Part shown: piece after piece, positions 1,717 to 11,946 of the stretch
How the letters are laid out: every line of letters starts with the position of its first letter
How positions within the stretch are numbered: the stretch's first letter is position 1
Translations under genes and position numbers: made by a program
Virus genome (UHGV): UHGV-0068847
Reading direction: 5' to 3' (one strand)
DNA length: 27,295 nt
Origin: a virus
The notes under the pieces: model-generated
Told to the model about the DNA's origin: nothing
Seen by the model: only the letters and a program-made list of their open reading frames with translations
Databases searched by the model: none

Positions 1717-2193
1717 TTAGTCCTTCACAAAGATAATCCAGTGGGTTTTGTCGTTCTTCCCGGTACGCTGACCAATTGCAGGTTTCACATCTGTAAGAGC
1801 CAGAATCTGGCTAACTGGGATTTGTGTTTCGTTCCATTTGAAAATAAGCACGCCGCGTGGCCACAGCACCCGAAACGCTTCTTTGAAACCGGCGCGCAAA
1901 TCAGAACGCCACGTTTTTTTGTTCAATCGCCCGTACTTTTTACCCATCCAGGCAGACTGGCCCACGCGTTCCAGGTGCGGCGGGTCAAACACCACAACCG
2001 GAAAAGAAGAATCAGCGAACGGCAATGAACGAAAGTCGGCAATCAGGTCTGGACTGATAACCAGGCGGCGACCGTCGCACAGTTCGTGCTCTTCGGCGCG
2101 GATATCAGTGAACACGGCGCGGGTGTCCTGCTTGTTGAACCAGAACATGCGGGAGCCACAACACACATCCAAAATTATTTGCTCTGCCATCAT
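1717..2193 (-). CDS. Small DNA methyltransferase (N6-adenine or N4-cytosine type, DPPH motif)
   Basis: Translation contains DVCCGS (motif I-like) and VVFDPPH (motif IV DPP[YH]); start ATG at 2193 overlaps the upstream stop (ATGA) and follows GAAGGGGGA; ORF track extends to 2238. Confidence 0.6.
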   Translation of the reverse strand: MMAEQIILDVCCGSRMFWFNKQDTRAVFTDIRAEEHELCDGRRLVISPDLIADFRSLPFADSSFPVVVFDPPHLERVGQSAWMGKKYGRLNKKTWRSDLRAGFKEAFRVLWPRGVLIFKWNETQIPVSQILALTDVKPAIGQRTGKNDKTHWIIFVKD

Positions 2194-2660
2194 TCCCCCT
2201 TCACGCCAATGCCAGCGGCGCGGATTGCGTCGGCACATTCTTCCAGTGCAAAGTTATATTTATCAGAAACTAGCCCGTAACCTTTCGGGTACGGCGTCGG
2301 CAGCGTCACGGTCCGCGCCACCAGTTCTGCTATGCGCTTCTCTGCAATTTCCAGCTCATCCAGCAGCGCCAGCACAGTGGCAGGGTTAGCGGCGGCGATG
2401 AATTCTGCGTTGCGTTTGGCTGTCTCATCCCAAGCCATGTGGTAATCGTGATCCAACTCTTCGTGAATGCACGCTGCTGTGGAATTGGTCATGTCGAGCA
2501 ATGACTCGCTACCGACGTAAACCGCGTATGAGTGGTATCCAGACGCTCTGTCTTCACCCTCGCCGTATTCACCGTCAGTTTCGACAACATCGGACCACCA
2601 TTCGCCCTGGGTGGCTTTCTCTGCTGTTTGGCGCAGCGCCTGTTTGTTGAGTGCTGTCAT
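2190..2660 (-). CDS. Ead/Ea22-like early protein
   Basis: 156-aa acidic protein with NPATVLALLDELE-type C-terminal region recalled from Ea22-like proteins of lambdoid phages; ATGA-coupled to neighbours. Confidence 0.5.
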   Translation of the reverse strand: MTALNKQALRQTAEKATQGEWWSDVVETDGEYGEGEDRASGYHSYAVYVGSESLLDMTNSTAACIHEELDHDYHMAWDETAKRNAEFIAAANPATVLALLDELEIAEKRIAELVARTVTLPTPYPKGYGLVSDKYNFALEECADAIRAAGIGVKGE

Positions 2661-3733
2661 TGGGCTGCCTCCATTGCGAATGTCCCTGCTGTGATAGCCA
2701 TTGCAAGCCTTTGTGCTGCAGCTTTCTGTGCCGGAACGCTGGCAATTACCGTGGCTCTTTCTTTGCTGGCATCAGCACAAACACCATCCCATGAAGAGAT
2801 AAGGAAGAAGTCTTCCAGCTCGGTCATTGTGGCTTTTGTTACCAGTTCTTCGATCATCTGCACGATGATATGCGCAGGGCGACGCCTCAGTAGTTCCTGG
2901 ACTGCATAGCCAAACGCATTGATCATCACCGCATGGAATTGGATGTAATCTCGCTTGTATTCAGCTGGTGATACACCGTGTCGGATACCATCAATAGCCG
3001 TCAGCTTCAGCCACGCTTCCCAAAGGTCATAAATATCGCCAGTAGACAGCGCATCGTCCCCGTTACCCGCGAATTTAGCAGTTGCATCACCAACGGCCTT
3101 AAAACTAATCCAGAGGTCACTTTTTGCCGGAACCACGCTGTGTTCAAAATCGGTGATCTCGGAGAACACTGAGTGAGTGGAGAGGAATGACACCATTGTC
3201 TGGGCAACCTGATCCCTGCCGTTATAAGCCATATTTATTGCTGCAGAAGGCTTAGATACGTTGTTATTGATATCAGAGAAAAATTGCTGGCGTGTCTTCA
3301 GTGGTAGTTGCAGAGTCATCATCAAAGGTACAAACAGGGGTGTATCGTATTCTCTGCAGAACATGGTTATACCTGCACCACGATGTTGCCCATCAAAAAG
3401 TTTAATTTCTGCGTCCATTGGGAACCGAACAACGCCTACGTTTGTATTGCCGAACTCTTCAAACTCCACATGTGAAGCACAGTTACCAACCAGTGGTGGG
3501 ATGATGAAAGGCTCCTTATTTTCAGCAGCTGCCACTAGGTATTCGTAAAAATTTTTTACGCGTGATTTATTGAGTTCACGCTGAGAACGCTCAAGCGTGT
3601 GTCCGTAATTATCAGATGCCAGTACGCGGGATAGGGTTCGTCCTGGAACGTTCATCAAAAGAATAAGCGTATCCCCCTGCAAGCCGCGAGAGGCAGGGAA
3701 CTCGAAGTAATACTCCATACTCGATTTGCTCAT
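2657..3733 (-). CDS. DGQHR-domain protein (DndB-like)
   Basis: 358-aa ORF containing the literal motif LFDGQHRGAGI; no DndA/C/D/E-like partners anywhere in the window; start overlaps the upstream stop. Confidence 0.65.
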   Translation of the reverse strand: MSKSSMEYYFEFPASRGLQGDTLILLMNVPGRTLSRVLASDNYGHTLERSQRELNKSRVKNFYEYLVAAAENKEPFIIPPLVGNCASHVEFEEFGNTNVGVVRFPMDAEIKLFDGQHRGAGITMFCREYDTPLFVPLMMTLQLPLKTRQQFFSDINNNVSKPSAAINMAYNGRDQVAQTMVSFLSTHSVFSEITDFEHSVVPAKSDLWISFKAVGDATAKFAGNGDDALSTGDIYDLWEAWLKLTAIDGIRHGVSPAEYKRDYIQFHAVMINAFGYAVQELLRRRPAHIIVQMIEELVTKATMTELEDFFLISSWDGVCADASKERATVIASVPAQKAAAQRLAMAITAGTFAMEAAQ

Positions 3734-3984
3734 AGCGCGCTTCCCTGTCTGGCTCTATTCAATAGCTGGTTAAACATCATGGTTAGGCTGTTACTACACC
3801 CAAACGGCATATCGTTAACACGGTATGTTGGAATGCCCTTGCGAACACCAGACTTCACGATCCGGCCTGTGCCATAGAGTTGCGATAATGCTCCGGCGAC
3901 CGCTGGCGTAGTTTTGTTCATACCTTTGGCGATTTCACCGCTGGTGGTATTCGGATGAGCCTGGAGATATTCAAATACGGTCAT
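3730..3984 (-). CDS. Small winged-helix-like DNA-binding protein (84 aa)
   Basis: Short ORF with HTH-like segment TSGEIAKGMNKTTPAVAGALSQLYGTGRIV; ATGA-coupled on both sides. Confidence 0.45.
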   Translation of the reverse strand: MTVFEYLQAHPNTTSGEIAKGMNKTTPAVAGALSQLYGTGRIVKSGVRKGIPTYRVNDMPFGCSNSLTMMFNQLLNRARQGSAL

Positions 3985-4148
3985 GGCGTTTTACCTTTAC
4001 GTTCCTGTTCCAGTTGCACCAGAGACTCTTTTAATGCTGCGAACGTAGTGTCCAGTCTGGTGGCGACTTCGCGCATAAGCGGTGCATGCTTTGGTGGCAA
4101 TTCAGCAACGGAGGCAAAAGCCTCCGCTACGAGTTCTTTTACCTTCAT
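3981..4148 (-). CDS. Small hypothetical protein (55 aa), translationally coupled
   Basis: Not in ORF track (below 60 aa); hand-translated MKVKELVAEAFASVAELPPKHAPLMREVATRLDTTFAALKESLVQLEQERKGKTP; start ATG overlaps the stop of 4145..4711 and its stop overlaps the start of 3730..3984. Confidence 0.35.
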   Translation of the reverse strand: MKVKELVAEAFASVAELPPKHAPLMREVATRLDTTFAALKESLVQLEQERKGKTP

Positions 4149-4684
4149 GCGGCACATTGGCGCTGCTCCATCAACTCATTAAAGCGATTTATGAACATGC
4201 CGTATGACTGGCCTGGACGAACTGGGTTGATGATGAATAGGTCCGTCGGGACAACGCCATTGAGGCATGGCCACACGGAACCTTCGTCAATTTCAAAATC
4301 GCGGCGTTCGCTGGCGAGCATCACCAGATCGGCATATTTCACGGTTGGGTGTTGCTCCATAGGAAGGCCAAATTTCTGGCGAATAGCAGCGTCTACGCGA
4401 GCTTCGATCACCTGGTAATCCGGTAACAGGCGCTTAAGCGGTGAGGGGATATCCTGCAGGTATGCTTCGGCGGCATCATGAAGCAGTGCTTCTAATGCAA
4501 ACTCCTGCGGAACGAGATGGCTGGTTAAAACGCTATGCTGGCCGACGCTGTAAAACTCAGGAAGATGCCCAGCAAAGCGGCAGATATGAGACAACGCGGT
4601 AGCGATATCTTCGATCACGATATCGTCCTGTTGGATATCGAGGTAATTAAAATGTTTGCCGGATAATGTCTGAATGTAGCTCAT
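4145..4684 (-). CDS. HD-domain phosphohydrolase, YfdR-like (CPS-53 prophage type)
   Basis: Motifs ALSHICRFAGH and ALLHDAAEAY (H...HD) in translation; ATG at 4684 preceded by GGAG; ORF track start at 4711 is a GTG. Confidence 0.6.
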   Translation of the reverse strand: MSYIQTLSGKHFNYLDIQQDDIVIEDIATALSHICRFAGHLPEFYSVGQHSVLTSHLVPQEFALEALLHDAAEAYLQDIPSPLKRLLPDYQVIEARVDAAIRQKFGLPMEQHPTVKYADLVMLASERRDFEIDEGSVWPCLNGVVPTDLFIINPVRPGQSYGMFINRFNELMEQRQCAA

Positions 4685-4777
4685 GGTTTTCTCCATATTG
4701 GCGCGCTGCACCGCGCAGATTTTGGTTGCACGAATCCCTCGCCGGTTGGCGATAATTAATGGAATTACGCTTCAATA

Positions 4778-4801
4778 AATCCCCGCGGCGCCGGGGATTT
4801 A
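4778..4801 (-). terminator. Hairpin just downstream of the YfdQ-like gene (possible attenuator or weak terminator)
   Basis: AAATCCCCG-cggcgc-CGGGGATTT inverted repeat about 12 nt past the stop at 4813; the U-tract on the minus strand is weak. Confidence 0.3.
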
Positions 4802-4812
4802 ATGCAGAGCAA

Positions 4813-5640
4813 TTAGGCTTTAAAGTTACCGATGAAAGTTTCCACTGATTCACCGTCGAACTTGCTGATCAGCAAATCGCGGAATTCGTTGGCGATCTCT
4901 TCTTCCTGGGCTTCAAGTTGGATGATGCGCAGAACAAAGCAGGGTTCATCGCTGGTCAGCAGGCTGTTACGCAAGCTAAAGCGGCGTTCGCCCAGACCTT
5001 CATACGGCACACATTTGAACTCGAATGCCACAGGCATTACGTCTTTGCTGCTTGCTTCAACGCTTTGCATCAGGGATTTTTTACCAGCGAAATCACTAGT
5101 TTCATGGTCCTGCTGGGTTGCTTGTTGAATGGTGATACGACGCACTGCCTGAGCCGCCTGGGAAATCTGCATCGTATTACCATCGGCATCAAACGCCAGC
5201 AGGTAATCACTCCAGTCTTCCAGCCATTCAGCAATTTGCTTTTGCTTCAGACGTTGACCATCGATCTGCAGTAACGCGCGGAACGGGGCGGTTTTCTTCA
5301 GGGTGATTGAAGCAACGTTATCGGCGTGACCGGGATTATCCAGGGTGCCGATGTTGAACACTGAACGGGCGGTCATATTGTCAGCGTCAATGAAGCAACG
5401 AGCTGGCTCACTGTCGCTGGCGTAACCTTTAGAATAACGTGCGAAGTCGTCAATACTGGTTGTGGTCATTGCGCCACGAAAGCGGAAACGCTCCAGAGAA
5501 AAGCGCTCAAGGCTTTCAACGCCAGTACCATCTGGCAGCAATGCGGTCGGGCAAGCCAGGCCATGAATATCATTCAGGTGATAACCTGAAAGAACCAGGT
5601 CTTTGACCTGCTTGAAGGTACCGCTGTCTAACTGAGACAT
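4813..5640 (-). CDS. DUF2303-type protein, YfdQ-like
   Basis: 275-aa ORF with AAGGA RBS; length and position next to the HD-domain gene match the yfdP-yfdQ-yfdR arrangement recalled from E. coli CPS-53; similarity not verified by search. Confidence 0.5.
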   Translation of the reverse strand: MSQLDSGTFKQVKDLVLSGYHLNDIHGLACPTALLPDGTGVESLERFSLERFRFRGAMTTTSIDDFARYSKGYASDSEPARCFIDADNMTARSVFNIGTLDNPGHADNVASITLKKTAPFRALLQIDGQRLKQKQIAEWLEDWSDYLLAFDADGNTMQISQAAQAVRRITIQQATQQDHETSDFAGKKSLMQSVEASSKDVMPVAFEFKCVPYEGLGERRFSLRNSLLTSDEPCFVLRIIQLEAQEEEIANEFRDLLISKFDGESVETFIGNFKA

Positions 5641-5696
5641 AAAAATTCCTTATTAACTGATGATCAAAGTGGTATCAGTGAGTTTGTTGTTGCGGA

Positions 5697-6068
5697 TCAC
5701 TGTGCCGCTTTAAGCTTTCCATCCACCGCGCCAGTGATCCCGAACAGCTGACCCTGATCTTCCTGCAGGATGGTTAGCTTCCCGCCTTTGTTGACCCACA
5801 TCGGGGTTTCGGTTGTGTCCTCTTCGGAGGCTTTACCACGCGGTGTCGGGGTGCTGTAGTTCAGCTTGTGCTTGATCTTCACGCGCTTCTCTTCAACGGA
5901 ATTACCCATACGCTCAAAATCAAATGTGAGGACTACTTTGCCTTTGTTGCCGTTGTTCAGAACGCCAAGCGCGGTAGTATTAAGTGCTGCCGCGATTTTG
6001 TTCATGAACACGCCGGCATCCAGTTCGCCAAGAAAATCTGGCACTACGGTCATGCGGTCATTACTCAT
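5697..6068 (-). CDS. Hypothetical early protein, possibly YfdP-like (123 aa)
   Basis: First gene of the leftward operon; GAGGG RBS before ATG at 6068. Confidence 0.45.
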   Translation of the reverse strand: MSNDRMTVVPDFLGELDAGVFMNKIAAALNTTALGVLNNGNKGKVVLTFDFERMGNSVEEKRVKIKHKLNYSTPTPRGKASEEDTTETPMWVNKGGKLTILQEDQGQLFGITGAVDGKLKAAQ

Positions 6069-6341
6069 GGTTTTACCCTCGTTAAGGCGGCTGCAACCGC
6101 CGAACTTTCTCCATACACAACAGAGAAGGGCACCTGCATTGGTCGGCGGCTTGCAGAGACCGCTTTCTTTTTGCCCGGGTGGATTGGGTTATGAGCCCGT
6201 CGCCCGGTGATGCCCTTTTCTGTTGTGCCTTGAAAAAGGCTGGCGGTTACCGGACAAGTGGGAAAACACCGGGCCGCCAGAATAGTGGTACAAGGCATTT
6301 GTTATCCTCACCAAACGTACCAATGATTACGTTTGATGATT

Positions 6342-6400
6342 TAAATGTACCTTTAGTTACCTTTGCGGTCAAGCGAGTAATGTACTTTATGTTACCTTTG
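6342..6400. promoter_or_regulatory. Putative left operator region (two 21-bp repeats)
   Basis: ATGTACCTTTAGTTACCTTTG (~6345-6365) and ATGTACTTTATGTTACCTTTG (~6380-6400); same motif recurs at OR. Confidence 0.5.
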
Positions 6401-6407
6401 GGAATGT

Positions 6408-6441
6408 AAAAAAGCCGAGGCTATGCTCGGCTCTTAATTTT
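6408..6441 (-). terminator. Rho-independent terminator downstream of the repressor gene
   Basis: GCCGAG-gctatg-CTCGGC hairpin (6414-6431) with a TTTTTT run on the minus strand and TCTTAATTTT on the plus strand; possibly bidirectional. Confidence 0.55.
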
Positions 6442-6448
6442 GAAGGGA

Positions 6449-7108
6449 TTAAATGTTTTGAGTGATTTGTACAACTTTTCCGACAATGCGACAGTTACCA
6501 TCAATTTGGATTGGCTTAAATAACGGATTCAGTGGCATTAGGTATGAGTAGGGGCTATCCCAAACTAATTTTTTAACCGTTGCTTCTGATGTCCCATCCA
6601 ATATAGCAACGACTATTTTCCCATATAGATCATCAAGCTGCCCATAATGGGGCTCGACTATAACAATAGAACCTTCTGGTATAGATGGAAGTCCTTGCGG
6701 GTTAGTCATCGACTCACCGCGGACTACTAACCCAAACGCTTCATCCGATACATTTGCAGTTGTTTGAGTCCAGGAAATCACGTCTGTAAGTCTTGAGCAG
6801 GCATAGCTATCCGTCCATAAACCGGCTTGAACTGCCGATATGATCGGTACAGCTACAGGGGGTTTCAAAAAAGGCACGACGCGCGTGTCGTCAATGGCCT
6901 CATCACCGCTTCCATAGAGTATCCACTCTGGTGTTGTTGATAGAGCCTGAGCCAACTGGTGAAGGTTCTCACCATCAGGCTTTGTCGTGCCGTTTTCCCA
7001 TTTTGTAACCGATACACGGCTTACACCAAGCTTTTTAGCCAGTGCTAATTGGGTTATATCCAGCTGGATTCGTCTGGATCTGATGCGGTCTTTCATCTCT
7101 GTTTTCAT
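6449..7108 (-). CDS. cI: CI-like repressor (HTH plus S24/LexA-type peptidase domain)
   Basis: N-terminal HTH (ITQLALAKKLGVSRVSVTKWENG), C-terminal GESM serine motif and downstream Lys; divergent from the cro-like gene across the operator region. Confidence 0.85.
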   Translation of the reverse strand: MKTEMKDRIRSRRIQLDITQLALAKKLGVSRVSVTKWENGTTKPDGENLHQLAQALSTTPEWILYGSGDEAIDDTRVVPFLKPPVAVPIISAVQAGLWTDSYACSRLTDVISWTQTTANVSDEAFGLVVRGESMTNPQGLPSIPEGSIVIVEPHYGQLDDLYGKIVVAILDGTSEATVKKLVWDSPYSYLMPLNPLFKPIQIDGNCRIVGKVVQITQNI

Positions 7109-7116
7109 GTAACCAA

Positions 7117-7176
7117 TGTTACACCCTTTGCTTGTAACTGTTGTTTGCTATTTAATGTACCTTTTGTTACCTTTGG
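7117..7176. promoter_or_regulatory. Putative right operator / divergent promoter region
   Basis: Palindrome GTTACAccctttgctTGTAAC (~7117-7138) and the repeat ATGTACCTTTTGTTACCTTTG (~7155-7175) between cI and cro. Confidence 0.5.
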
Positions 7177-8330: not shown

Positions 8331-9186
8331 ATTAACCGGCTACGTATGGGATGGTTGCGCAGCGTCGGGCATGAAGTTGTCTAGTGTCGCGATCATGGCT
8401 CGCCTTGCTGATTTCAGCAGCGATGAAGGTGTGTGCTGGCCGTCCATTGAAACTATTGCTCGCCAGCTTGGCGCAGGGCCGAGCACTATCAGAACGGCAA
8501 TCGCAAAGCTTGAAAAAGATGGCTGGCTCACGCGCACACAGCGCCGTAATGGTAACCGTAATGCTTCGAACGTGTACCGCCTGAATGTGGCGAAACTTCA
8601 GGCTGCCGCATTTTCTCAACTGTCAGATTCTGACACGTCAAAATCTGACGCATCAAAATTTGACGCCTCAAAAACTGACCCGTCGAAATCTGGCAAAAAC
8701 GGCGGTTTTGACCCGTCAGAATCTGGCGGGGATCCGTCAGTAAAATCAACACAAGATCCACAAGTAACTTCAAAACCCTCTTGTCCGGTTGCGGCGCAAC
8801 CCGACCCTGAGATTGTGATTACTGATCAGGCCAGACAGGTTTTGTCTTACCTGAACCAGACAACTGGTTCACGCTATCAGGTATGCAGCACGTCGCTGGA
8901 GAACATTCGTGCCCGTCTGCGGGAACGGTTCACTGTTGATGATCTGTGCCTTGTGGTGGATTACAAAAACGCTGATTGGCGTGATAGCGAGCAGGCTCAA
9001 TATCTCCGTCCGGCAACTCTGTTTATTCCAAAAAACTTCCCTGGTTACCTGCAAAGCGCGACCAAATGGTCTGCCGCTGGGCGACCTGAGCGCGTTAACG
9101 GTAAATGGACGGCTAACTCAGCCAGCCGCGCAAGCTTCCAAAATGTTGACTACTCACTTCCAGAACATTCGGGGTTCCGCTCATGA
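8320..9186 (+). CDS. Replication initiator-like protein (N-terminal HTH, phage conserved C-terminal domain)
   Basis: N-terminal HTH-like region; central low-complexity S/D/K repeat encoded by the iterons; position after cII-like as in lambda O. Confidence 0.55.
   Translation: MSTKLTGYVWDGCAASGMKLSSVAIMARLADFSSDEGVCWPSIETIARQLGAGPSTIRTAIAKLEKDGWLTRTQRRNGNRNASNVYRLNVAKLQAAAFSQLSDSDTSKSDASKFDASKTDPSKSGKNGGFDPSESGGDPSVKSTQDPQVTSKPSCPVAAQPDPEIVITDQARQVLSYLNQTTGSRYQVCSTSLENIRARLRERFTVDDLCLVVDYKNADWRDSEQAQYLRPATLFIPKNFPGYLQSATKWSAAGRPERVNGKWTANSASRASFQNVDYSLPEHSGFRS
8621..8723. repeat. Tandem 15-bp iterons (putative replication origin) inside the initiator gene
   Basis: TGACACGTCAAAATC, TGACGCATCAAAATT, TGACGCCTCAAAAAC, TGACCCGTCGAAATC in tandem at 8631-8690, with degenerate copies at 8621-8630 and 8709-8723. 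Confidence 0.55.
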
Positions 9187-10064
9187 TGCCAAATAAATAT
9201 TGCCAGTCGCTGGCAGAACTGCGCAGTAAACCAGCTCACGAATTGAAAGAAGTTGGCGATCAGTGGCGAACACCGGATCTGCTGTTTTGGGGGATCAACG
9301 CGCTATTTGGTCCATTAGTTCTGGATTTGTTTGCTGACGACGACAACGCGAAATGCCCGGCATGGTACACCGCCGAAGATAACGCGCTGACCCAGGACTG
9401 GTCTGAACGTCTGGCAGAACTGGGTGGCGCAGGTTATGGCAACCCACCGTATAGCCGTTCGCAGTACCACGAGAAACAGGCGATCACTGGTATGACGCAC
9501 ATCATGAAGTACGCAGCAGCCCAGTGCGAGAAGGGCGGTCGCTATGTATTCCTGATAAAAGCCGCGCCAAGTGAAACGTGGTGGCCGGAAGATGCCGATC
9601 ACATTGTATTCATTCGCGGGCGCATTGGGTTCGATCTGCCAGTGTGGTTTGTACCTGCTGACGAAAAACAGAAGCCCACCAGCGCGTTTTTTGCCGGTGC
9701 CATAGCTGTATTCGATAAGTCATGGCGTGGTGAGCGGTTCAGCTATATCAACCGCACAGAACTGGAGGCAAAAGGTCGGGCATTTATGGCGCTGGCTCAA
9801 TTCGCTGTTGGCAAAGAGCCGACAATTGCAATGCGAGCACCCCAGGAGCCAGTCATACCATCGGAAACTGAGTCACGTATCTGGCCTCTCGAGGTTGGTC
9901 TGGTGTTTAACCAGGTGGAAGGCGTTGACGTATTGAGTGAGGCTCAGCAGAACAAGCTGAAAGCCAACATCAATCAACTCTGGCTGGAACGAACGGCCAC
10001 CAGCGAAATTATCACAATTGCGCGTGGTCTTGTCGGCAGCATGCAGGGGGTAACCCATGCGTGA
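9183..10064 (+). CDS. Dam-family DNA N6-adenine methyltransferase
   Basis: NPPY catalytic motif (GYGNPPYSRS) and phage Dam-like N-terminal region (WRTPDLLFWGINALFGP). Confidence 0.8.
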   Translation: MMPNKYCQSLAELRSKPAHELKEVGDQWRTPDLLFWGINALFGPLVLDLFADDDNAKCPAWYTAEDNALTQDWSERLAELGGAGYGNPPYSRSQYHEKQAITGMTHIMKYAAAQCEKGGRYVFLIKAAPSETWWPEDADHIVFIRGRIGFDLPVWFVPADEKQKPTSAFFAGAIAVFDKSWRGERFSYINRTELEAKGRAFMALAQFAVGKEPTIAMRAPQEPVIPSETESRIWPLEVGLVFNQVEGVDVLSEAQQNKLKANINQLWLERTATSEIITIARGLVGSMQGVTHA

Positions 10065-11946
10065 GATTATCGTTGATAACTTTGCTGGTGGCGGTGGCGC
10101 ATCAACGGGTATTGAACTGGCGATCGGACGCAGCGTGGATATTGCGATCAACCACGACGAAAACGCCATTGCGATGCACAAGACGAATCACCCGGAAACA
10201 CTGCATTACTGCGAATCCGTATTTGACGTGGATCCGGTAGCCGCCACCGGAGGTAATCCTGTCGGCCTGGCATGGTTTAGCCCGGACTGCCGACACTTCT
10301 CGAAGGCAAAAGGCGCCAAGCCTGTGAAAAAAGAGATACGCGGTCTGGCCTGGATTGTTCTGCGTTGGGCACTGGCAAAGCGACCGCGCGTGATGATGCT
10401 GGAGAACGTGGAAGAGTTCAAAACGTGGGGACCGCTATTACCAGCTGAGCCACAAAATCCCAATCTGGTGGGGGATGATTTGGCTGCATTTGTTGGCCCA
10501 GTTATACCGCCTTATGATGCGCAGCGTCCGGATCCGGCACGAGCTGGTGAAACATTTGAGGCATTTGTCGGCATGCTATCCACTGGTATTCCTGCTGATC
10601 ACCCGGCACTGGCTGAGGTTTGTGAGTTTCTGTCTATCGAAAGAGGTAGCGAGCAGGCGCAAAAGCTGGTGGATGGGCTTGGATATGATGTTGATTATCG
10701 CGAACTACGCGCGTGTGATTACGGCGCGCCGACGATCCGCAAACGCTTCTTCATGGTTATGCGCTGCGATGGCTGCCCAATCCAGTGGCCTGCAGTTACC
10801 CATGGGGATCCTAAGTCTCTGGAGGTGCAGAGCGGCAGGCTGATGCCATGGCGTACCGCTGCGGAATGTATCGACTGGAATGTTCCGGCCCTGTCCATCT
10901 TCGACCGCAAAAAAACGCTGGCGGAGAACACGCTGAAGCGGATCGCGCGCGGCATACAGCGCTTTGTTATCGAAAGTGCGTCGCCGTTTATCGTGAAGTG
11001 CAATCACACCAGCACCAAAACGAGTTACGACTGTTTCCGTGGTCAGAAGCTGGACGAGCCTTTGCAAACTATTACTAAAACCCACGGTTACGCGTTAGCT
11101 GTTCCACACCTGACAAAATTCCGCACTGGGGCAACCGGGCAGCCCGTTACCGAACCTGTCCCGACGGTAACCGCTGGCACGTCAAAACGCCCGGGTGGGA
11201 ATGGGCATGCACTCGGGATTGTTGAGGCTGCACTGACGCCATTCCTGGCGGGTAATGGTGGTAGTGAATACCAGGCTAAACCGCGCCCGCTGGATAAACC
11301 TGCTCATACCATTATGAAGCAATCCCGCGCCTGTCTTGTTGCGCCAGTGATAGCCCGCCAGTTTGGGGCCAGCGTCGGCCACCGGGCAGACGAACCGAGC
11401 GCCACAATTACAGCTGGTGGTGGAGGTAAATCACAATTGGTGGGCGCGTTTCTGGCTAAACACTACGGCGGTAACTATACGGGACCGGGTGTCAGTATGG
11501 ATGAACCCGCACACTCAGTGACCACTGTCGATCATCATGCGGTTGTTGCCTCTCATTTGGTGAAACTGCGTGGAACATGCCGCGACGGGCAACGTCTTGA
11601 TGTGCCCATGCCAACAATCACCTCTGGTGGCCAACACGTGGGTGAGGTACGCACATTTCTCGAGACGTATTGCGGGGAAAGTGACGATGAATGGCTGGTA
11701 ACGATCGATGGGGTTAAATACCAGATCGTTGATATCGGAATGCGCATGTTGCAGCCGCATGAACTCTACAAAGCGCAGGGCTTCCCGGATGGATACGTTA
11801 TTGATCAGGACTACCGTGGAAATCGCTATGCAAAAGATAAGCAGGTAGCCCGCTGTGGTAATGCGGTACCACCACCATTCGCCAGGGCGCTGGTGGAGGC
11901 AAATCTTCCGGAACTGTGTGCAGTGCAACATCAGGAGGTGGCATGA
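10057..11946 (+). CDS. DNA cytosine-5 methyltransferase (629 aa)
   Basis: Motif I FAGGGG, ENV, QxRxR-like IRKRFF, GNAV; catalytic Cys lies in SPDCRHFS instead of canonical PCQ; start overlaps the Dam stop. Confidence 0.8.
   Translation: MREIIVDNFAGGGGASTGIELAIGRSVDIAINHDENAIAMHKTNHPETLHYCESVFDVDPVAATGGNPVGLAWFSPDCRHFSKAKGAKPVKKEIRGLAWIVLRWALAKRPRVMMLENVEEFKTWGPLLPAEPQNPNLVGDDLAAFVGPVIPPYDAQRPDPARAGETFEAFVGMLSTGIPADHPALAEVCEFLSIERGSEQAQKLVDGLGYDVDYRELRACDYGAPTIRKRFFMVMRCDGCPIQWPAVTHGDPKSLEVQSGRLMPWRTAAECIDWNVPALSIFDRKKTLAENTLKRIARGIQRFVIESASPFIVKCNHTSTKTSYDCFRGQKLDEPLQTITKTHGYALAVPHLTKFRTGATGQPVTEPVPTVTAGTSKRPGGNGHALGIVEAALTPFLAGNGGSEYQAKPRPLDKPAHTIMKQSRACLVAPVIARQFGASVGHRADEPSATITAGGGGKSQLVGAFLAKHYGGNYTGPGVSMDEPAHSVTTVDHHAVVASHLVKLRGTCRDGQRLDVPMPTITSGGQHVGEVRTFLETYCGESDDEWLVTIDGVKYQIVDIGMRMLQPHELYKAQGFPDGYVIDQDYRGNRYAKDKQVARCGNAVPPPFARALVEANLPELCAVQHQEVA

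Follow-up and report, generated by a model that had tools for sequence, protein, structure and literature searches.

The virus genome UHGV-0068847 (27,295 nucleotides (nt); this whole stretch of DNA is hereafter called the window) carries three consecutive open reading frames (ORFs), all on the minus strand, with limits at 5697–6068, 4813–5640 and 4145–4711 in the ORF listing of the window. From the letters alone, these had been proposed to be a module resembling the yfdP, yfdQ and yfdR genes of Escherichia coli K-12. The cluster is indeed a yfdP-yfdQ-yfdR cassette like the one described in CPS-53, a cryptic prophage of E. coli K-12, and it comes with two structured RNA elements, one located upstream of yfdP and the other between yfdQ and yfdR. 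As a gene cluster, the cassette is already known, and the window is a further copy, in a Citrobacter prophage, which adds little. The new part is the two conserved, covarying RNA structures that bracket yfdP-yfdQ and have no Rfam match. The genes and the two RNAs were located as follows:

5697–6068, minus strand: yfdP-like gene, 123 amino acids (aa), Pfam PF27127 / phrog_204
4813–5640, minus strand: yfdQ-like gene, 275 aa, DUF2303
4145–4684, minus strand: yfdR-like HD-domain phosphohydrolase gene, 179 aa from the conserved ATG at 4684
6083–6228, minus strand: structured leader RNA, core of ~145 nt (fold, conservation, covariation)
4682–4815, minus strand: structured spacer after the yfdQ stop codon (fold, covariance model, covariation)

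The three proteins were compared by BLASTP with the MG1655 CPS-53 proteins from NC_000913.3. The identities were 59% for YfdP (E=2e-49), 57% for YfdQ (E=2e-113) and 63% over 178 aa for YfdR (E=3e-89), the metal-binding residues of the HD domain were present in the last of them, and the order and orientation of the genes were the same as in K-12. Thus, the identification made by the sequence-only reading, including the gene order of CPS-53, was borne out on direct comparison. Moreover, the proteins were assigned in PHROGs to phrog_204 (YfdP, E=1e-41), phrog_210 (YfdQ) and phrog_318 (YfdR, E=7e-96), the last of which is labelled 'deoxyribonucleoside 5' monophosphate phosphatase'. The YfdQ-like protein matched Pfam PF10065 (DUF2303) with 224.7 bits against a cut-off of 26.6 (E=1.7e-66, profile positions 28–269 of 269), and the family of YfdP was taken from the precomputed PF27127 matches of its homologues, as the Pfam copy scanned with the window protein held no matching model. 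The longest ORF for the yfdR-like gene is 4145–4711 (188 aa, with a possible GTG start at 4711), while the ATG at 4684 is the start in the homologues and in the annotation by the Prokaryotic Genome Annotation Pipeline of near-identical E. coli prophages. Furthermore, the spacer between yfdQ and yfdR is of equal length in CPS-53 and the window (127–128 nt) and has homologous hairpins in both. On the other hand, CPS-53 has yfdS and yfdT after yfdR, whereas the window has neither of them and presents instead a 58-aa ORF, a winged-helix ORF and a DndB-like gene. CPS-53 is also a decayed remnant without leader RNA upstream of yfdP, while the window is a seemingly intact prophage with int, xis, cI, cro and cII together with replication, Q-like and terminase-region genes.

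The cassette was shown to be composite. One unit is yfdP plus yfdQ, an old pair with strict adjacency, accompanied at the 3′ end of yfdQ by a structured RNA spacer. The other is yfdR, which encodes an independent HD phosphohydrolase of the Atu1052/YfdR type and whose linkage to the pair is confined to Enterobacterales. A sample of 132 loci was used, comprising K-12, seven annotated phages, 45 species-representative genomes and the best 80 IMG/VR contigs, which is skewed to close relatives (only the best 80 IMG/VR matches were kept), and the fractions given here are descriptive only. A YfdP homologue was found directly upstream of YfdQ in 125 of the 132 loci, and only two loci with enough upstream DNA had no detectable YfdP. 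The pair was present in the Vibrio phages VvAW1, 24E30.2, D93, 1.232.O and 1.151.O and in the Xanthomonas phage CP2, as well as in loci of Pseudoalteromonas, Limnohabitans and Psychrobacter, and the YfdP proteins of the three distant phages compared directly (Vibrio, Xanthomonas) were 35–46% identical to that of the window. In contrast, yfdR followed yfdQ in 112 of the 132 loci, in Enterobacterales only, and was absent from every distant (non-enterobacterial) locus of the sample. Moreover, in sibling E. coli prophages whose backbone is otherwise 92–96% identical, yfdP and yfdQ are replaced by rdgC with yfdR kept; the replaced segment corresponds to positions 4717–6080 of the window, and comprises yfdP, yfdQ and most of the spacer. 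One example of the swap is L002 (E. coli strain 1943, NZ_CP023359.1; 4793–5710), where the leader RNA, the last hairpin of the spacer and yfdR were kept; most of the 307 matching E. coli records covered only the shared flanks. The gene yfdR is separable because it is absent from the distant loci and retained when rdgC replaces the other two genes, and the genomic evidence says that YfdP and YfdQ work as a pair, independently of YfdR. Therefore, of the single module previously proposed, the adjacency of the three genes in the K-12 order stands, while the unity does not, there being two separable units. A protein (P0149) matching the Pfam families of both YfdP and YfdQ and considered as a 'Rosetta stone' fusion of the two was rejected, as it turned out to be an in-frame deletion joining YfdP residues 1–53 to YfdQ.

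Regarding the neighbours of the pair in distant phages, genes for a single-stranded DNA-binding protein (SSB) appeared in four contexts and for a DEDD/DnaQ exonuclease in two, flanking it in Vibrio, Pseudoalteromonas and Limnohabitans loci. Methyltransferases, a Tad2-like gene (locus L049) and integrases were found as other neighbours, and the Vibrio phage 1.232.O has, in addition to the pair, a separate Rad52-type annealase.

The spacer between yfdQ and yfdR is 128 nt long in the window and, with few exceptions, measures 126–138 nt in loci having both genes; its alignment with the K-12 spacer was at a level comparable to that of coding DNA. Two hairpins had been noticed here at first sight, which proved to be real, conserved and subject to compensatory changes, although their number is three:

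4762–4814, minus strand: H1, long stem starting in the yfdQ stop codon, with its core at 4778–4801
4778–4801, minus strand: terminator-like GC-rich core of H1, AAAUCCCCG..CGGGGAUUU followed by UAUUG
4739–4752, minus strand: H2, short stem
4701–4716, minus strand: H3, stem GCGCG-GUGCAG-CGCGC whose GUGCAG loop is invariant, lying ten bases ahead of the ribosome-binding site of yfdR
4691–4694, minus strand: yfdR ribosome-binding site, with the ATG at 4682–4684

A covariance model of the spacer (R1) matched 73 of 73 selected loci at full length, always directly after yfdQ, and the element was also present in seven loci whose next gene is not yfdR. The model had no match in the rdgC locus, where the last stem (H3) alone was kept, together with yfdR. 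Among 72 distinct sequences, pairing was maintained in 94.8% of the cells versus 36–52% with slid partners, in an alignment fitted to the covariance model, which favours the structure. Furthermore, 11 pairs had changed on both sides, and none of 500 shuffles reached the observed values. G.U pairs outnumbered A.C pairs (42 vs. 14), which points to an RNA of the sense strand. The core of H1 has 9 base pairs (bp) and a predicted energy of −14.6 kcal/mol with the tail UUUAUUG, and the consensus terminator scan made no call on the minus strand. We infer that the spacer combines a partial terminator, or a hairpin serving processing or stability, with a subsequent stem that would control translation of the gene behind it.

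The second RNA element is the leader found between the putative early-left promoter (PL) and yfdP. The sequence from PL to yfdP folded with −111.9 kcal/mol (z=−5.7 vs. shuffles), and according to RNAalifold its architecture consists of a closing stem of ~20 bp (CACAACAGAAAAGGGCA / UGCCCUUCUCUGUUGUG) around two hairpins, with a further hairpin (CGGCGG..CCGCC) just before the yfdP ribosome-binding site. More than 90 loci had the core conserved ahead of yfdP; it was likewise conserved upstream of rdgC in the sibling prophage L002, and was also found in the phages LLS, ST64B, SfII/SfIV/SfV, cdtI and Stx2. Pairing was maintained in 92.8% of the cells versus 41–54% when slid, 15 pairs showed double changes versus 2–12 in the slid controls, and G.U pairs were again more frequent than A.C pairs (127 vs. 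28). The covariance model of the leader (R2) identified one copy in the window (122.8 bits) and had no match in HK022 or in K-12 CPS-53, and neither this model nor a sequence search revealed a second copy in the window of the putR or PR-operon kind. Moreover, neither of the two RNAs had a match in Rfam at the gathering thresholds over the whole window, and at E≤1 over positions 4600–6460 the sole match was a chance-level RsmY on the opposite strand.

No N gene was found between PL and yfdP, and the leader may control the early-left operon in which none lies at that place. A put-like mechanism has been suggested for LLS (PMC12315714). Like the put RNAs of HK022, the leader is structured and follows PL closely, and the lambdoid phage that carries it has no N gene separating PL from the first gene. 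However, the leader is larger (~145 nt), has a multibranch fold, occurs as a single copy and has no homologue in HK022, so its membership among the put RNAs is unsupported; the candidate identification as an HK022 put homologue, or as an element with a twin in the PR operon, was rejected for the lack of matches. The leader also contains a mini-ORF of 10 codons (6082–6114, minus strand; AUG GAG AAA GUU CGG CGG UUG CAG CCG CCU UAA) that runs across the last hairpin and stops 13 nt short of the start of yfdP. In relatives, AUG or GUG occupies this position, and the changes across the mini-ORF preserve the hairpin rather than a peptide. A 77-aa ORF at 6065–6298 (minus strand) is probably spurious as a gene, as it overlaps both the leader and the yfdP start, has no family hit and is unannotated in relatives.

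The window was shown to be a lambdoid prophage of Citrobacter freundii of the LLS/ST64B/phiNP type, whose leftward early (PL) operon begins with yfdP, yfdQ and yfdR. Its YfdQ-like protein is 100% identical to a Citrobacter freundii protein. The genes run in the order int, xis, a small DNA methyltransferase, Ead/Ea22, a DndB/DGQHR-like gene, two small ORFs, yfdR, yfdQ and yfdP, followed beyond yfdP by cI, cro, cII, an O-like initiator, Dam and C5 methyltransferases, RusA and a Q-like antiterminator. Features in and around the operon were the following:

1–1149: int (Pfam/PHROGs/NCBIfam scans)
6344–6372, minus strand: PL-like early-left promoter, sigma-70-like, TTGACC-17-TACATT (promoter scan)
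~6340–6400: left operator (OL) repeats CAAAGGTAAC-N5-GTACATT overlapping PL (sequence and repeat inspection)
6410–6435: cI terminator hairpin, between cI and yfdP
6449–7108: cI (cI/Cro identified by Pfam)
7151–7176: right operator (OR) copies of the operator repeats, between cI and cro (repeat inspection)

The function of the promoter and operators is inferred from these motifs. As PL and the operators lie between cI and yfdP, yfdPQR would be the first genes of a repressed early-left operon, which agrees with the previous proposal that the cluster belongs to a phage early operon. When the minus-strand ORFs from int to cI were scanned with Pfam, PHROGs and NCBIfam, no recognisable Rec module was found in this operon. 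The whole window contained 13 Chi sites (GCTGGTGG) versus 1.25 expected, 10 of the 13 being on the plus strand. The richness in Chi and the lack of a Rec module mark the prophage as belonging to the 'LLS functional type' of lambdoid phages, which is thought to rely on the host RecBCD (PMC12315714). The YfdQ proteins of phages LLS, phiNP and Salmonella phage 118970_sal3 were 78%, 92% and 90% identical to that of the window, respectively, and LLS has a homologous leader RNA. As in the window, phages LLS, ST64B and phiNP lack both an N gene separating PL from yfdP and a Rec module, and are rich in oriented Chi sites, while the window differs in its Citrobacter host and in other downstream genes.

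As for YfdR, the metal ligands of the HD domain in the window protein are H50, H69, D70 and D119, accompanied by E73 and D78. The ligands align with those of YfbR, which we take to be H33, H68, D69 and D137. The six residues were kept in 91–92 of 95 distinct homologues, the remaining sequences being truncated or frameshifted, so the metal site is intact and under selection. Both YfbR (PDB 2paq) and Atu1052 (PDB 2gz4, an uncharacterised HD protein) share with YfdR the H...HD...D ligands and the HDxxE...D.P.P.K motif. However, the likeness is close for Atu1052 (E=1e-24 with the YfdR family profile) and marginal for YfbR (E=0.2 only, over the motif), and the window YfdR reached 22.1 bits with the YfbR-like family of Pfam (PF12917), below the cut-off of 25.9 and over profile positions 49–117 only. 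RefSeq names the K-12 protein 5'-deoxynucleotidase. This protein differs from YfbR in having a much lower affinity for nucleotides, according to Zimmerman 2008 as cited in PMC4776307, and in binding DnaA. In particular, purified K-12 YfdR binds domain I of DnaA in a Phe46-dependent manner and competes moderately with DiaA and DnaB (PMC4776307). The sole experimental evidence, which was obtained with the K-12 protein, points to DnaA binding, and by homology the same most likely applies to the window YfdR.

With respect to the other two proteins, DUF2303 comprises 1520 representative clusters, and the 150 best-scoring representatives were nearly all single-domain proteins of 264–288 aa (~275 aa), for which reason domain fusions were discarded as a clue to function. 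A sequence search of the PDB identified the entry 9o7m ('YfdQ Protein'), in which 36 chains share a single 274-aa sequence of the type found in Xanthomonas phage CP2. This sequence matched the window YfdQ with E=4e-40 and the family profile with E=6.5e-114. From this, it can only be said that a YfdQ homologue forms, or belongs to, a many-copy assembly. Neither the neighbouring CP2 ORF36 nor YfdP has an entry in the PDB. A fold search of BFVD with YfdQ matched only DUF2303 or uncharacterised phage proteins, including those of actinophages. The AlphaFold2 model of YfdP (predicted local distance difference test (pLDDT) 81) presented two N-terminal helices, three long strands and a disordered tail of ~18 residues.

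Altogether, the explanation favoured here, as a whole and with moderate confidence, is that of a PL-operon cassette composed of the YfdP-YfdQ pair and a separable YfdR that takes part in a DnaA-directed takeover of host replication. Upon loss of the repressor, transcription would start at PL, pass through the structured leader of ~145 nt and yield YfdP and YfdQ, and it would then meet the terminator-like hairpin at the yfdQ stop codon and continue into yfdR, whose ribosome-binding site would be preceded in the transcript by the conserved stem with the GUGCAG loop. The window YfdR most likely binds domain I of the host DnaA at the Phe46 site, because it is 63% identical to the K-12 protein, and this would dampen the recruitment of DnaB and DiaA at oriC and so contribute to the takeover of host replication early in lytic growth. 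YfdR would also keep a phosphohydrolase activity, which is suggested by the conservation of the catalytic residues and is weak on deoxynucleoside monophosphates (dNMPs) in K-12. As for YfdP and YfdQ, they most likely act jointly as an oligomeric factor in a DNA transaction, in favour of which are the 36 chains of a YfdQ homologue in 9o7m and the SSB and exonuclease genes beside the pair in distant phages.

Several points weigh against this explanation, in addition to the skew of the locus sample. Multicopy yfdQ and yfdR together with yfdS or yfdT inhibit initiation at oriC, yfdP being dispensable, but this was observed with overexpression only and its authors warn of a possible artefact (PMC4776307). 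In K-12 pull-downs, neither YfdR nor DnaA was bound strongly by YfdQ, YfdS or YfdT (PMC4776307). Moreover, the inhibitory gene set (yfdQRS or yfdQRT) is incomplete in the window, where yfdQ and yfdR are present without yfdS or yfdT, the best match in tblastn searches of the window with K-12 YfdS and YfdT being no better than E=0.4. Lastly, the model of YfdQ was of moderate quality (pLDDT 70) and gave no informative fold match; the underlying alignment was shallow, as a second homologue search returned mostly the same close relatives.

Other explanations were considered in the light of the same data. It is unlikely that YfdR acts chiefly as a 5'-deoxynucleotidase that remodels the pools of dNMPs and deoxynucleoside triphosphates or destroys nucleotide signals of host defences, with YfdP and YfdQ as accessories. 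The near invariance of the HD residues does indicate that catalysis is under selection, the PHROGs and RefSeq labels name a phosphatase or nucleotidase, anti-defence genes lie near the pair in some loci (Tad2-like in L049, methyltransferases), and the window itself has three DNA methyltransferases and a DndB-like gene. Against it, the nucleotide affinity of K-12 YfdR is much below that of YfbR, as far as the citation of Zimmerman 2008 in PMC4776307 tells, and the similarity of the window protein to YfbR lies below the Pfam threshold and is marginal with the family profile. In addition, yfdP-yfdQ occur without yfdR in all the distant (non-enterobacterial) phages, and the PADLOC defence models matched none of YfdP, YfdQ, YfdR and phage RdgC. 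Thus, the idea of a nucleotide-pool or anti-defence enzyme, raised in the sequence-only reading, is possible, yet it is not the best-supported one.

A recombination function for the pair was judged quite improbable. YfdP and YfdQ would in that case be an unrecognised single-stranded DNA-handling system or a modulator of RecA/RecBCD, replacing the missing Rec module of a Chi-rich phage. The excess of Chi sites, the SSB and exonuclease genes flanking the pair and the fact that RdgC, a RecA-modulating DNA-binding protein, takes its place in sibling prophages are in favour of this, as is the mild sensitivity of a yfdQ deletion to methyl methanesulfonate and H2O2 (PMC4776307); the many chains of 9o7m may also recall the rings or filaments of annealases, by mere resemblance. 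Nevertheless, some phages that carry the cluster have a full Rec module as well (ArgO145), whereas some that lack such a module do not have the cluster, and the authors surveying 314 lambdoid phages, who named LLS gp37–39 yfdR-, yfdQ- and yfdP-like, considered a role in recombination unlikely (PMC12315714). Furthermore, the Vibrio phage 1.232.O has its own annealase in addition to the pair, YfdQ showed no similarity to phage RdgC (hhalign probability of 0.3%), and neither sequence nor fold similarity was found between YfdQ and the solved annealases. The pair could also be thought of as a superinfection-exclusion or defence cassette, like RexAB of lambda and the phage RdgC/RexA-like proteins in the same slot, since the two genes swap as a unit and share their slot with rdgC, and RdgC resembles RexA structurally and sits just left of cI (PMC12315714). 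This is highly improbable, as the position of the cassette, behind the cI terminator and downstream of the OL/PL operators, implies that it would be repressed in the lysogen, unlike rexAB, and the pair also occurs next to replication genes in apparently virulent Vibrio and Xanthomonas podophages; the negative PADLOC result applies here as well.

Returning to the cassette with two separable units, its relevance lies in the wide distribution of the cluster, which is found in Stx2-converting phages, the Shigella serotype-converting phages SfII/SfIV/SfV, ST64B, LLS and K-12 CPS-53. DUF2303 alone accounts for ~1500 clusters at 50% identity, and the experimental data concern YfdR only. The split between the yfdP-yfdQ pair and the HD gene is a guide to the choice of genes for deletion and co-expression experiments. 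Moreover, the two conserved RNAs suggest how an early-left operon without an N gene at that place might be controlled, and LLS, a phage able to grow on E. coli K-12, allows direct tests of the hypotheses on both. A broader proposal, put forward tentatively and to be regarded as rather doubtful when all its parts are taken together, is that both RNAs are new cis-regulatory elements of lambdoid phages whose left operon does not begin with an N gene. In this view, the leader would set read-through or translation of the early-left operon independently of N, in a put-like manner but with an unrelated fold, and the spacer would join a translational operator to a terminator or processing site and so set the ratio of YfdP/YfdQ to YfdR, while YfdP and YfdQ would form a large homo- or hetero-oligomeric DNA-handling machine of an undescribed kind.

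Finally, other genes of the same prophage arm were observed. The DndB/DGQHR-domain protein encoded at 2657–3733 (minus strand), in the same early operon, matched Pfam DndB with E=5e-47 as well as TIGR03187 and the DndB model of PADLOC, but it scored 111 bits against the NCBIfam cut-off of 328 for true DndB, well below it, and no other Dnd-family matches turned up among the ORFs scanned. This gene could be related to anti-defence or DNA modification. Upstream of it, the ORFs 3730–3984 and 3981–4157 encode an 84-aa winged-helix protein (MarR-like PHROG) and a 58-aa protein, respectively. Furthermore, three DNA methyltransferase genes were located at 1717–2238 (minus strand), 9183–10064 (plus strand) and 10057–11946 (plus strand), encoding a small Type II/orphan-like methyltransferase, a Dam-type N6-adenine methyltransferase and a 629-aa C5-cytosine methyltransferase, which suggests a heavy investment in anti-restriction.

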